A stretch of DNA of 64,000 nt, from NCBI RefSeq assembly GCF_057098645.1, contig NZ_CM169472.1; one strand, given 5' to 3'. Shown here piece by piece: positions 15,001 to 21,000 of this stretch (the first letter of the stretch is position 1; each line of letters begins with the position of its first letter). Made by a program: the position numbers.

Positions 15001-18000
15001 CTTGGCAACAGCGAATCTCTGGTATGCGGCGTGTTTCCCAACCAGGACGGTACGTTTACCGCGATGACGTATACCAAAAGTAAAACGTTTAAAACCGAAG
15101 CTGGCGCGCATCGCTGGTTAGCAAGAAACTCCGACTGATGAGGTTGACGATGGAATTTAAAGATTTACCTCCTTCAATCCAGGAGATTGCAGCACACACA
15201 CTTCGTCATCGTCTGAACGAACTTGAATTGGAATCGGTAACGAAAAAAGACACTGATAATATGGCTCGTAATGTGCGCGATGCGTTTACCGGATTGTATT
15301 TCTGTGCGTCTATAAATAAACACGACTCAGAGAGTGTGGCAAATAAAATTGCAGAAACGACAGCGCAAAACATCAATACGAAACCAACGGAAGAAGAAAT
15401 TGATCAGTTTGCTCATGATGCTGGTTTAAAAAACAAGAAAGAAAAATCGCCATATGCGGGGAACATGTTTGTTTATGACAATCTCATCAGAATTCGTGGC
15501 GAAATTCCGGCGGAATACCTGGCAAGAGTCCATCAGGCATTGCTTAAAAATTTGGAAACAGAATTATTTGATGGCAACACTAACGGTTTCTTCATGGTAT
15601 CAGGCCTTGATAAAGACTGGGATGCAGAAAAACGCTGGAATGTTGCTACATGGTTATTCAGTAACAGAGCCGCTGCACTGGAAGCTTCGGCATGTATTTG
15701 CGGCCTGTTCTTAACAGACCACAAATATAATCTGGATGTGTACAGTTATATTTACGCTGAACACGGTCCACTCTGGATTGACTGGTAATTATAAGGAAAC
15801 ACCAGCAGGGCCGCGGCGACCAACAGAACGATTAAAATCAATAATGCCATTATAAAGGACATTATTTAATTTATCGTCGAATGCTGATTCTGTGAGCCTC
15901 AACTCTGAATGAGTTTTTAATAACCCTGATTGCCTGAGTTGATTTACCAGGCATTCAATCTGTTTTTCAATAAGCGGATTTCTTTTTTTGTTTGGCATTT
16001 TATCCTCCATTGAGGTTCTGGGTTAAAAATGGAGACCAACACGCTGTCACGTGTGGTCGTGCGCCGGACACGGATAAGAATCCGGTACTGACAGTTTACT
16101 GAAAGGATATTTCCCTGAAAAGTCAGGGCATAACGCGAAAGCGTACGGCGAAGCTCTTTCCCTTAGAAGGCTTGTCGTTAGATTTCTTCGAACGTGCGCT
16201 TCCGGTTGTGGCACTCCGCGAAATGGCGCGGCGGTAAGTATGGCGGGGTTATTCCTTCCCCGTTGAGGACACCGGGTTGTCAGGTTGACCATACGCTTAA
16301 GTGACAATGAACCGCCCCGGGTTTCCTGGAGAGTGTTTTATCTGTGAACTCAGGCTGCCAGATCATCGTTTCCGATGGAAGCATAATAAGCTTTTTCTGC
16401 TTCTGCCGGAGGAGTATGGCCCAGCCTTTCCAGCAATCGTCGATTGTTATACCAGTCCACCCACGTGAGTGTGGCCAGTTCCACTTCTGCACGGTTTTTC
16501 CAGCTCTTACGGTGTATTACCTCCGCTTTGTAAAGACCATTGATGCTCTCCGCCATCGCGTTGTCATACGAGTCGCCTGTACTTCCTGTTGATGCCAGTA
16601 ATCCGGCTTCCTTAAGCCGCTGTGTGTAGGCCAGCGATACATACTGAGAACCTTTATCACTGTGATGGACCGTGCCGGACGGTCGACGGGCCCATAACGC
16701 CTGCTCCAGTGCATCCAGCACGAATGTCGTCTCCATGGACGATGAGACCCGCCACCCCACAATGTATCCGGCAAACACATCAATGATGAACGCCACATAG
16801 ACGAAGCCCTGCCATGTGCTGACGTAAGTAAAATCAGCCACCCACAGCTGGTCAGGTCGTTCTGCCACGAACTGACGGTTTACGCGGTCGCCTGCGGCAA
16901 CGGCTTTCCGGCTGATGGTCGTACGGACCTTTTTACCCCGGAGAACACCGGCAAGTCCCATAACCGCCATGAGACGTGCCACAGTGCATCTGGCCACTCT
17001 GATACCTTCCCGTAACAACTGACGCCAGACTTTACGCACACCGTATACCTTGTGATTTTCATCGTATACGCGCTGTATCTCTTTCTTCAGCCAGTCATCG
17101 CGCTGCGCACGGGCACTGCGTTTATCCGGATGATGTCGCTGTTGCTGACAGTGGTAATACGTTGACGGGGCAATATGCAGTTCGCTGCATAGCGGTCCGA
17201 CCCCGTACTGCTCACGCAGCTTATCCAGCAGTGGCATCATTTTTTCCAGAGGCGGTCGAACTCCGCCTTCGCAAAATAAGCGGAAGCCTGGCGAAGGATA
17301 TCGTTACTGCGGCGCAGTTCACGATTTTCACGCTCCAGCTCTTTCAGACGCTGACGTTCAGCGGTGGTGAGCCCTCCATCACCGCCCCCGGTATCCCGCT
17401 CATGCTGGCGAACCCAGACACGCAGAGTCTCCGGCGTACAGCCAATCTTTGGAGCAATGGAACAAATTGTCGCCCATTGTGAGTCATATTCGCCCTGACT
17501 TTCCAGAACCATACGGACTGCCCGTTGACGGACTTCAGGGGAAAAACGAGTATTTTTAGTCATCCTGTTTACCTCTTTCTCAGGAAGTTTAGTCTCCAGG
17601 ATTCCCGGGGCGGTTCACAACCCCGCTGCAACGCCCTCTGTTATCAATTTTCTGGTGACGTTTGGCGGTATCAGTTTTACTCCGTGGCTGCTCTGCCGCC
17701 CTTTTTAAAGTGAATTTTGTGATGCGGTGAATGCGGCTAAGCGCACGCGGAACAGTTAAAACAAGCGGTCTTTTACGGGCGTAACGGGAATGCTCTGTAT
17801 CCGGCGTTAATTGTTAACTGGTTAACGTCACCTGGAGGCACCAGGCACTGCATCACAAAATTCATTGTTGAGGACGCGATAATGGAAACGTTATTACCAA
17901 ACGTTAATACGTCTGAAGGTTGTTTTGAAATTGGTGTCACTATCAGTAACCCTGTATTTACTGAAGATGCCATTAACAAGAGAAAACACGAACGGGAGCT

Positions 18001-21000
18001 ATTAAATAAAATATGCATTCTTTCAATGCTGGCCCGTTTACGTCCGATACAAAAAGGATGCTGGCAATGAATACAGCATTTGCACTTGTTCTGACAGTTT
18101 TTCTTGTTTCCGGAGAGCCAGTTGATATTGCAGTCAGTGTTCACAGGACAATGCAGGAGTGTGTAACTGCAGCAACCGAACAGAAAATTCCCGGTAACTG
18201 TTACCCGGTCGATAAAGTTATTCACCAGGATAATAACGAAATCCCGGCAGGTCTTTAAAACAGTTCCGTAATAAACATCCGATTTCATTCTTATATGCCA
18301 GCAATGGCAGGGATTTGTTCACCCTTAAATCTGTAATGAGGTAAAACAAAATGAGTAAAGTCTTTATTTGCGCCGCCATTCCGGACGAACAGGCAATAAA
18401 GGAAGAAGGTGCAGTCGCTGTAGCCACTGCCATTGAAGCCGGTGATGAATGTCGCGCCCGCGCAAAATTTCACTGGCAATTCCTGGAACATTATCCGGCT
18501 GCTCAGGACTGCGCTTATAAATTTATTGTCTGCGAGGATAAACCTGGCATACCCCGCCCTGCCCTCGATTCATGGGATGCTGAATATATGCAGGAAAACC
18601 GCTGGGATGAGGAGTCTGCTTCTTTTGTCCCGGTTGAGACTGAATCCTATCCGATGAACGTCACTTTTGACAAGCTGGCCCCTGAAGTACAGAACGCTGT
18701 CATGGTTAAGTTCGACACATGTGAAAACATCACCGTTGATATGGTTATTAGCGCACAGGAATTGTTGCAGGAAGACATGGCAACATTCGACGGACATATC
18801 GTTGAAGCGTTGATGAAAATGCCAGAAGTTAACACCATGTATCCGGAGCTTAAGTTGCACGCCATTGGGTGGGTTAAGCATAAATGTATTCCTGGTGCTA
18901 AATGGCCCGAAATTCAGGCAGAGATGCGCATCTGGAAAAAACGTCGCGAAGGTGAACGCAAGGAAACCGGAAAATACACGTCTGTTGTTGATCTCGCCCG
19001 CGCCAGAGCCAATCAACAGTACACTGAAAATTCAACAGGAAAAATCAGCCCGGTCATTGCTGCCATTCATCGCGAATACAAGCAGACATGGAAAACACTG
19101 GATGACGAACTGGCCTACGCTCTCTGGCCTGGTGATGTGGATGCCGGAAACATTGACGGCAGCATCCATCGCTGGGCAAAAAATGAAGTTATCGACAACG
19201 ACCGCGAAGACTGGAAGCGTATCTCGGCATCAATGCGCAAACAGCCTGATGCCCTTCGCTACGACCGCCAGACTATTTTTGGCCTTGTCCGTGAACGTCC
19301 GATCGACATTCACAAAGACCCTGTGGCACTGAACAAATACATTACTGAATACCTGACTACAAAGGGCGTGTTTGAAGATGAAGGAACAAATCAGAGCGCA
19401 ACTGATACTCTCTCGTCGCCAGTACCAGAAACTGATGCAGTGGAAACTGAGGTATCTGATATCCCAAAAAATGAAACCGCGCCGGAAGCTGAACCATCTG
19501 TAGAGCGTGAGGGGCCGTTCTACTTCCTCTTCACCGACAAGGATGGCGAAAAATACGGTCGCGCAAACAAACTTTCTGGTCTGGATAAGGCGCTGTCTGC
19601 TGGGGCTACTGAAATCACGAAAGAAGAATATTTCGCCCGCAAAAACGGTACATACTCAGGTTCACAACAAAATACTGGTGCATCTGACACGACCGCACAA
19701 CCAGGGTCAGTAAAAGTTACCGCTGACGAAGTAAACAAAATTATGCAGGCAGCCAATATCAGCCAGCCTGACGCCGATGAACTGCTTGCAGTATCACGTG
19801 GTGAATTTGTTGAAGGGATTAGCGACCCGAATGATCCGAAATGGGTTAAGGGGATCCAGACCCGCGATTCTGTGAACCAGAACCAGCAAGAAACGGAACA
19901 GAACGACCAGAAAGCGGAACAAAACAGCCCAAATACGCAACAAAACGAGCCAGAAACGAAACAACCTGAACCAGTAGTGCAACAGGAACCGGAAAAGATC
20001 TGCACCGCCTGCGGTCAGAGCGGTGGCGGCAACTGCCCTGATTGTGGTGCGGTGATGGGTGAGGCAACATACCAGGAAATATTCGATGGAGAGAATCAGC
20101 CTGAAGTTCAGGAAAATGATCCGGAGGAAATGGAAGGCACTGCGCATCAGCACAAGGAGAACACTGGCGGCAATCAGCATCATGCCAGCGATAGTGAAAC
20201 TGGCGAGGCGTCAGATCCCTTAATTAAGGCGAACGGTCATCATAATCTCACATCCACCAGCAGAGCGGGGATTCATCTGATGATCGACCTTGAAACCATG
20301 GGAAAAAATCCCGATGCCCCGATTATCTCAATAGGTGCAATATTTTTCGATCCGCAAACCGGAGATATGGGACCGGAATTTAGTAAGACTATCGATCTGG
20401 AAACTGCTGGCGGAGTCATTGATCGGGACACCATTAAATGGTGGCTTAAGCAATCACGCGAAGCGCAATCTGCCATTATGACCGATGAAATCCCGTTAGA
20501 TGATGCACTGTTACAATTGCGGGAATTTATCGACGAAAACTCCGGTGAATTTTTTGTTCAGGTCTGGGGAAATGGAGCCAACTTCGACAACACGATTTTG
20601 CGCCGTTCATACGAACGGCAGGGGATCCCCTGCCCGTGGCGTTACTACAACGATCGCGATGTACGCACAATCGTTGAGCTGGGGAAAGCCATAGACTTCG
20701 ATGCCAGAATGGCTATTCCATTCGAAGGTGAGCGCCATAATGCACTTGATGACGCCCGTTACCAGGCAAAATACGTTTCAGTTATCTGGCAAAAACTGAT
20801 CCCGAGTCAGGCTGATTTTTAATGTTCAACCCTAATTGCCGCTAACCGTATATAGTTAGCGGCGGTTATGAGATATAGCTATGAGTAGCTTATTTTTAAC
20901 CGAAGATGAATTGCTAATATTAACGGGCTGCAAATATGCAAGCCACCAGCGAAAATGGTTAACGGAAAACGGGCTTCCGTTCTATACCAATCGTAGTGGC

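Follow-up and report, generated by a model that had tools for sequence, protein, structure and literature searches.

A Qin-type dicF-dicB-ydfD-exonuclease block in a lambdoid prophage, separated from its putative promoter region by an IS629 element

Does a prophage that carries dicF, dicB and ydfD in intact form also express them, so that the genes could serve, for example, in the exclusion of other phages? The question is raised by positions 17649-20822 of a 64,000-nucleotide stretch of DNA (NCBI RefSeq assembly GCF_057098645.1, contig NZ_CM169472.1; the whole stretch is called the window below), in which an earlier note, made from the sequence alone, had recognized a Qin-type dicF-dicB-ydfD block followed by a full-length DnaQ-like exonuclease gene, and had put the block forward as a prophage-borne exclusion candidate. 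The block is intact; we consider it likely that it is the distal part of the early-left operon of an mEp460/Qin-type prophage and that its expression is probably reduced through polarity by the insertion sequence (IS) IS629 located upstream of DicF. The intactness of the DicF and DicB sequences in this strain does not imply expression, as IS629 separates the genes from the promoter region. The central features, with their positions in the window, are as follows:

16308-17617, minus strand: intact IS629/IS1203 element of the IS3 family, 1,310 base pairs (bp), with terminal inverted repeats, orfA/orfB and a frameshift pseudoknot
17649-17701, plus strand: DicF small RNA gene, 53 nucleotides, with a terminator-like 3' hairpin and T-run
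17882-18070, plus strand: dicB, encoding a 62-residue cell-division inhibitor (Pfam, NCBIfam)
18067-18258, plus strand: ydfD (DUF1482), encoding a 63-residue lysis protein homologue
18351-20822, plus strand: gene of an 823-residue exonuclease, the full-length form of K-12 ydfE, in a single open frame (PF16473)

The identities proposed for the three small genes were borne out by profile matches above the respective cutoffs and at matching coordinates. A scan of the whole window with Rfam revealed a single DicF gene, matched by RF00039 at 17650-17701 on the plus strand (75 bits, gathering cutoff 48, E=1e-14, model positions 1-52 of 52), and the RNA is identical to K-12 DicF at 52 of 53 positions. 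The 3' part of DicF is complementary to the translation-initiation region of ftsZ (predicted duplex with K-12 ftsZ, -29 to +25); the sole change, A39G, lies at an unpaired position and has no predicted effect on this pairing, which amounts to -38.5 kcal/mol for both the K-12 and the window allele. DicB matches PF05358 from end to end (residues 1-62 of 62, 127.4 bits, cutoff 27, E=1.7e-37) as well as the NCBIfam model NF049927 (132.7 bits, cutoff 100). It shares 55 of its 62 residues with K-12 DicB, and five of the seven differences fall within the last 16 residues. YdfD, with 88 bits against DUF1482 (PF07358; cutoff 25, E=3.7e-25), is identical to K-12 YdfD at 59 of 63 residues, and its start codon overlaps the dicB stop codon (ATGA). 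A spacer of 92 bp with a GAGG ribosome-binding site follows, and the exonuclease gene downstream is one uninterrupted open frame from 18351 to 20822, as had been claimed. The coding and RNA sequences, the ribosome-binding sites and the DicF terminator of the block are all intact. Furthermore, the label "Qin-type" is justified: when the DNA was aligned three ways, with that of K-12 Qin and of one closely related prophage, the columns between the DicF leader and the beginning of the exonuclease gene showed an average identity of 96%.

The functions of the K-12 homologues are well described. DicB of K-12 binds MinC, thereby blocking division, and inhibits ManYZ in a MinC-dependent manner; transient expression of dicBF leads to roughly 100-fold resistance to lambda, which is DicB-dependent and acts via ManYZ and MinC, and other ManYZ-dependent phages are also resisted after transient induction (PMC6832061). 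DicF represses the mannose-transporter mRNA (PMC10448788) as well as the xylR and pykA mRNAs (PMC10448788, PMC5069750), YdfD lyses cells by inhibiting IspG (PMC8835842), and in enterohaemorrhagic E. coli (EHEC) the DicF copies feed into virulence control (PMC7873438). The division inhibition and phage protection that the earlier note attributed to DicB and DicF are thus real in K-12. By analogy with these homologues, DicF of the present strain would pair with ftsZ mRNA via its 3' part and with further mRNAs, including the mannose-transporter message; DicB would bind MinC, block Z-ring formation and inactivate ManYZ, which would block DNA entry by lambda-like phages; and YdfD would cause lysis by inhibiting IspG. 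An exclusion role of this locus can fairly be inferred from the homology to K-12 DicB, but its expression behind IS629 is doubtful and no catalogued defence system was specifically matched. In PADLOC-DB v2, the exonuclease gave only a generic DEDDh hit of 24 bits, and DicB, YdfD, the repressor and two further operon proteins of 212 and 69 residues (introduced below) gave none. The exclusion proposal is further weakened by the fact that the effect in K-12 requires derepression of a normally repressed and toxic operon.

The IS element responsible for this doubt, which is absent from the earlier note, is inserted 31 bp upstream of the 5' end of DicF and lies antisense to the operon. Its inverted repeats begin TGAACCGCCCCGGG, it contains open reading frames of 108 and 296 residues and an ALIL pseudoknot (120 bits, Rfam), and it is bordered by a 3-bp target duplication, CAA, at 16305-16307 and 17618-17620. 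Related copies are annotated as IS1203. K-12 and three close relatives of the prophage (OkiPb01711, 95NR1 and E2863) have an empty site at the corresponding position. A second copy of IS629 is located at 40132-41441 on the plus strand and also shows a CAA duplication; the two copies are 100% identical, which points to recent insertion of both. As they are inverted and about 22.5 kb apart, they also provide a substrate for inverting the intervening segment, which includes the prophage end, mtfA and the tRNA-Asn island.

The possible consequences of the insertion can be weighed against what is known of the K-12 operon. There, a single polycistronic transcript, initiated at dicBp upstream of ydfA, yields both DicF and DicB; it is cleaved by RNase III 137 nucleotides before DicF and by RNase E at the 5' end of DicF (PMC10448788). 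In the same study, neither primer extension nor Northern blotting indicated an internal promoter in K-12 (PMC10448788). The window contains a comparable arrangement on the left of IS629 and a prophage end on the right of the block:

13919-14200, minus strand: Cro/YdaS-like gene, divergent from the repressor gene
14229-14279, no strand assigned: OR-like control region, with exact TACC-N4-GGTA at 14229 and 14268 and a degenerate copy at 14253
14300-14719, plus strand: 139-residue CI-like repressor in the position of DicA (WP_000362152.1 in relatives; phrog_5736 "transcriptional regulator", E=5e-70)
14763-14805, plus strand: OL-like operators TACCCATGGGTA and TACCCACGGGTA, overlapping a weak PL-like promoter candidate, TTTACT-17-TATCCT
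14986-15138, plus strand: ydfA homologue (DUF1391; PF07151, E=1.9e-28), first gene of the operon
15150-15788, plus strand: 212-residue protein without assigned function (phrog_2151; annotation in relatives)
15789-15998, minus strand: gene of a 69-residue protein without assigned function (phrog_4274; annotation in relatives)
16129-16210, plus strand: predicted long RNA hairpin, from the fold of the reconstructed empty site, lying wholly to the left of the IS
20881-21084, plus strand: DUF4224 excisionase-like gene, xis (profile, phrog)
21084-22109, plus strand: 341-residue tyrosine integrase gene, int, with an open frame (profile)
22162-22251, minus strand: tRNA-Ser (anticodon CGA), the attachment end of the prophage, followed by mtfA and tRNA-Asn

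The 12-bp palindrome TACC-N4-GGTA occurs in four exact copies in the window, against 0.39 expected, and all four are located in the two control regions, with the OL-like pair at 14763 and 14788 just 3' of the repressor gene. These palindromes are probably the operators of the 139-residue repressor. The latter resembles DicA only weakly and in its C-terminal part (24 bits against NF007257, cutoff 101), and an S24 peptidase domain was not detectable in it. As the OR/OL layout is that of a lambdoid immunity region, the start of the early-left operon, with a PL-type promoter corresponding to K-12 dicBp, can be placed at about 14760-14805, where the promoter hexamers were read by eye. The operon would then run from the repressor gene and PL/OL through ydfA, the 212-residue gene and a long untranslated leader, with DicF at its end, to dicB, ydfD, the exonuclease gene, xis and int. 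Because xis and int are followed by tRNA-Ser and then by mtfA and tRNA-Asn, the region is, by its gene content, the int-proximal end of a prophage at tRNA-Ser (CGA), and the block would be the distal part of a PL-type early-left operon of an mEp460/Qin-type lambdoid prophage. In terms of the standard lambdoid early-left operon, it is the "kil plus nuclease" stretch.

IS629 stands between the block and the operator-flanked PL-like region at about 14760-14805, so that a transcript from PL would have to cross 1.3 kb of untranslated IS629 sequence in antisense. The plus strand of the element contains 29.7% C and 24.3% G, with several C-rich and G-poor windows, while the native leader has more G than C. 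Untranslated RNA that is rich in C and poor in G is a typical substrate for Rho termination. A consensus scan of the plus strand between IS629 and dicB found no sigma-70-like site of at least 9/12 with a spacing of 16-18. Since the block now lies 1.3 kb further from the only documented type of promoter and behind C-rich untranslated RNA, its expression is probably lowered or abolished through polarity. Disabling mutations in the promoter, which the earlier note had named as speaking against its proposal, hence have an equivalent here: the coding regions are intact, but an insertion that separates the block from the promoter region is a change of that kind.

We regard it as unlikely that the block is instead expressed normally or constitutively, by read-through from PL or from a promoter at the junction of IS and flank, and acts as a working module of superinfection exclusion and division control. 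The processing signals would permit it. The insertion falls inside the region equivalent to the 190-nucleotide DicF precursor of K-12, in the 3' arm of a predicted 9-bp hairpin. The longer predicted hairpin at 16129-16210, which by position would contain the equivalent (about 16199) of the RNase III cut that yields this precursor, and the RNase E region at the DicF 5' end are both preserved, and mature DicF could therefore still form if transcription crosses IS629. Intact coding and RNA sequences, ribosome-binding sites and DicF terminator fit normal expression equally, as does the exclusion phenotype itself, which is real in K-12 (PMC6832061), and the only intrinsic-terminator-like site inside IS629 on the plus strand has a stem of 5 bp. 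On the other hand, the operon is kept repressed and is toxic even in K-12, where exclusion was demonstrated only upon induction; moreover, Rho typically acts on untranslated RNA in which C exceeds G, and here this RNA extends over 1.3 kb.

Several observations weigh against the reading of an intact but poorly expressed block. A relaxed scan detects a weak hybrid promoter candidate across the junction of IS and flank, TTCACA-19-TGTTAT, which scores 9/12 and has its predicted start near the DicF 5' end. Its spacer is 19 nucleotides long, however, and a hexamer of equal quality, GTGACA, occupies the equivalent place in the uninterrupted sequence, where K-12 nevertheless showed no promoter. Read-through of IS629 from PL may also occur, given that the native leader is already untranslated over more than 500 nucleotides and that the operon may tolerate this or have an antitermination device. 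An older study, as mentioned in PMC10448788, proposed a promoter upstream of dicB. With regard to the products, 7 of the 62 residues of the DicB allele, most of them towards the C-terminus, are not those of the K-12 protein that was studied experimentally; the fold of the N-terminal domain of the 823-residue protein gave no informative match; and the substrate of its predicted 3'-5' activity may be DNA or RNA.

The same module is widespread. Its presence was scored in 5,426 complete E. coli genomes as a match over at least 80% of the 732-bp dicF-dicB-ydfD stretch, and it was found in 3,823 of them (about 70%); genomes with any match carry it at a median of 2 places and a maximum of 9. This agrees with reports that the dicBF locus is present in many different prophages and multiplied in EHEC (PMC5069750; PMC7873438). 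The present insertion is far more restricted. Neither of the two IS junction queries gave a single-piece match near 100% identity in this genome set; hits of full coverage were two-piece joins or, in one case, a match of 88.9%, and in the two that were opened (FWSEC0005 and RM9154-C1) the IS is located elsewhere. The same IS end lies within about 600 bp of dicF in only 5 of the 5,426 genomes, making such insertions recurrent but rare. In a different prophage, of O145 RM9154-C1, an IS629-like element is inserted 13 bp further left in the same orientation, and the immunity region is lost. In O111:NM FWSEC0005, the spacing of the pieces places an IS1203 about 211 bp to the right of the present site, in the interval from dicF to dicB, and the genes from dicB to int are not annotated at this locus. 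The dicF leader may be a target hotspot of IS629, or the insertions may be selected silencing events.

These data also bear on a further explanation, according to which a decaying prophage carries the block as inert cargo, without present function, and the genes are intact only because they were recently acquired. IS629 cuts the block off from its promoter region, relatives at the same locus have truncated or frameshifted exonuclease or integrase genes, and other genomes show IS insertions, in some cases accompanied by deletions, in this short stretch. Nevertheless, all four genes of the block as well as xis and int are open here, about 70% of E. coli genomes retain the module, frequently in multiple copies, and the identity of the IS copies, which indicates a recent insertion, says little about long-term selection. 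We do not favor this explanation, although it has a minor share of the probability that is not negligible.

Moreover, the block is not restricted to integrated elements. The whole dicF-dicB-ydfD-exonuclease block is present in the complete genomes of the phages mEp460, Tritos, HannyBb and PhiR42_1 (phage records LR597641.1 for mEp460, OV696610.1 for Tritos, PP925841.1 and PV340562.1), and these four phages share the order repressor, ydfA-like gene, DicF, dicB, ydfD, exonuclease, xis and int. It follows that the block is a normal module of the phage early-left region and not a peculiarity of cryptic prophages, and that the statement made in 2016 that phage genome databases held no dicB or dicF (PMC5069750) no longer holds. 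The dicF-dicB-ydfD module, its spread, the exclusion of ManYZ-dependent phages by DicB and the lysis caused by YdfD are already known (PMC5069750, PMC7873438, PMC6832061, PMC8835842), and the finding is of little consequence outside annotation.

The exonuclease, which pairs a RecE-like middle part with a DEDDh nuclease domain, is the one remaining point of some interest. Its parts are arranged as follows, in residues of the 823-residue protein (window 18351-20822, plus strand):

1-262: N-terminal domain
following part: acidic, Q/N/S/T-rich, RecE-like middle
551-565: CxxC-x7-CxxC
642-813: DEDDh domain

Over its first 255 residues, the protein shares 98% identity with the product of ydfE, a K-12 pseudogene truncated by IS2 in Qin. 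Residues 642-813 match PF16473, the Rv2179c-like 3'-5' exonuclease family, with 224.9 bits (cutoff 27, E=7e-67, profile positions 2-177 of 177), and all five DEDDh catalytic residues are present (D646, E648, D746, H796 and D801). The description as "DnaQ-like" in the earlier note is thus adequate at the level of the superfamily, that is, the DEDDh fold, but not as a family assignment, as the strong match is to the Rv2179c-like family and the RNase_T/DnaQ-type model PF00929 stays below its cutoff on this protein (21.5 against 24 bits). The sole solved structure found to be related by sequence is the 227-residue "Exodeoxyribonuclease" chain of PDB 8kel (E=1.6e-6, C-terminal domain), which we take to be DexA of phage T4.

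It is very improbable that the protein is a RecE-type exonuclease VIII, in other words a 5'-3' recombination exonuclease acting on double-stranded DNA, although some phage records label it "exodeoxyribonuclease VIII" and its place in the operon equals that of recE in Rac. Residues 262-625 are indeed homologous to residues 278-591 of Rac RecE, with 38% identity overall and about three quarters over the final 150 residues, and they include the CxxC-x7-CxxC motif. The likeness is confined to this part of RecE, however: the NCBIfam RecE equivalog NF007259 reaches 272 bits against a cutoff of 1269, at model positions 271-603 only, where K-12 RecE itself reaches 1830 bits. Membership in the RecE/exodeoxyribonuclease VIII group (NF007259, PF06630) was rejected, with a score below the cutoff and a catalytic C-terminus that is DEDDh (PF16473, E=7e-67) and not PD-(D/E)XK. 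In addition, profile searches found no recT-like gene after the exonuclease gene, which is directly followed by xis and int. The domain content of the protein thus refutes the RecE-type reading and does not support the label "exonuclease VIII" in several database records. Judging from its RecE-equivalent position, its DEDDh 3'-5' domain and the lack of a RecT-like partner, the protein would most likely be a nuclease that processes DNA ends early in the lytic cycle.

The protein is abundant, with more than 7,800 clusters at 90% identity, mostly from E. coli, and all those listed share one precomputed architecture. A literature search on ydfE and Rv2179c-like phage exonucleases found nothing relevant, and the protein appears to be biochemically uncharacterized. 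Many other proteins have its N-terminal domain combined with a different conserved end, with the motif KKSLTDAIKKALSxLGFSAD. This unassigned end has no match in Pfam or among PDB sequences; a resemblance to Rad52/Sak-type annealases was considered, but neither search supported it, and we do not claim it.

A more speculative proposal, which we think improbable, places the 823-residue protein in a small uncharacterized family of modular phage early proteins and, separately, assumes that IS629 could free dicF-dicB from the repressor and supply a weak junction promoter. The members may have in common an N-terminal domain of 260 residues with unmatched fold and a RecE-like acidic middle, joined to exchangeable C-terminal effector domains, which may be DEDDh here and a PD-(D/E)XK RecE-type nuclease or an unidentified domain in relatives. 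If this proposal were true, a DEDDh version without a RecT partner would have a role outside classical recombination, for example in counter-defence or in the degradation of nucleic acid of the host or of competitors.

Besides the early-left operon, the window contains several other features of note:

8822-8996, 3334-3506 and 4279-4528, all minus strand: the set of sok, STnc100 and two-tRNA features of the same prophage
26979-27107 and 28922-29106, both minus strand: EFASI RNA, C4 antisense RNA with a1/b1 target, and an isrK-like hit, inside the tRNA-Asn island
52980-53052 (minus strand), 54800-54872 (plus strand) and 57209-57281 (plus strand): three additional tRNA hits, equal in Rfam score to tRNA-Asn 23243

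The sok antitoxin RNA (113 bits) implies a locus of the hok/sok type in the prophage. Apart from the STnc100 small RNA, there are two phage-borne tRNA genes, located near a 616-residue open reading frame; close relatives have a counterpart of this frame that carries the annotation SASA-family carbohydrate esterase. The island begins with a 454-residue integrase at 23378-24742, beside tRNA-Asn at 23243-23318, and its EFASI, C4 and isrK-like set looks like P4/P1-type immunity RNAs in an integrative element. The three further tRNA hits are probably, judged from the Rfam score alone, the rest of the asn tRNA cluster. Between 23300 and 48000, the backbone matches E. coli O145:NM FWSEC0002 with 100% identity; it contains an Ig-like/inverse-autotransporter gene as well as the type VI secretion genes tssI and tssF. 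In that strain, the tRNA-Ser prophage has a different repressor, of the LexA family, and a frameshifted exonuclease gene; the tRNA-Ser prophage locus is thus mosaic between close relatives.

Among known systems, the closest counterpart of the block is the dicBF operon of K-12 Qin (ydfABC-dicF-dicB-ydfD-ydfE), in which DicF, dicB, ydfD and ydfE follow in the same order and a ydfA homologue is likewise the first gene after the repressor gene. The present locus differs from it in that ydfE is full length (823 residues) and not cut by IS2, that the 212-residue gene and the reverse 69-residue gene take the place of ydfB and ydfC, and that the repressor is not DicA and the operators differ. Furthermore, IS629 is inserted 31 bp upstream of DicF, and the prophage is located at tRNA-Ser with open xis and int frames. 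With the early-left regions of mEp460 and Tritos, it shares 3.2 kb of colinear sequence from dicF to the exonuclease gene (97.3% and 93.7% identity, respectively), followed by xis and int. These phages have no IS in the leader, and their integrases, encoded by genes of about 1.28 kb, differ, as presumably do their attachment sites; the repressor of mEp460 is also different and is annotated as C2-type. The arrangement further recalls kilR-recE-recT of Rac, where a DUF1391 gene (ydaF), a division inhibitor, a large nuclease and xis-int occupy the same positions and the RecE residues 278-591, with CxxC-x7-CxxC, correspond to the middle of the 823-residue protein. In Rac, however, the division inhibitor is KilR instead of DicB and DicF, and the nuclease is of the PD-(D/E)XK 5'-3' type with RecT as its partner, whereas the protein described here would be a DEDDh 3'-5' nuclease without one. 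By this C-terminal domain, which matches PF16473 end to end, it is most similar to the DEDDh 3'-5' exonucleases of the Rv2179c-like and T4 DexA type.

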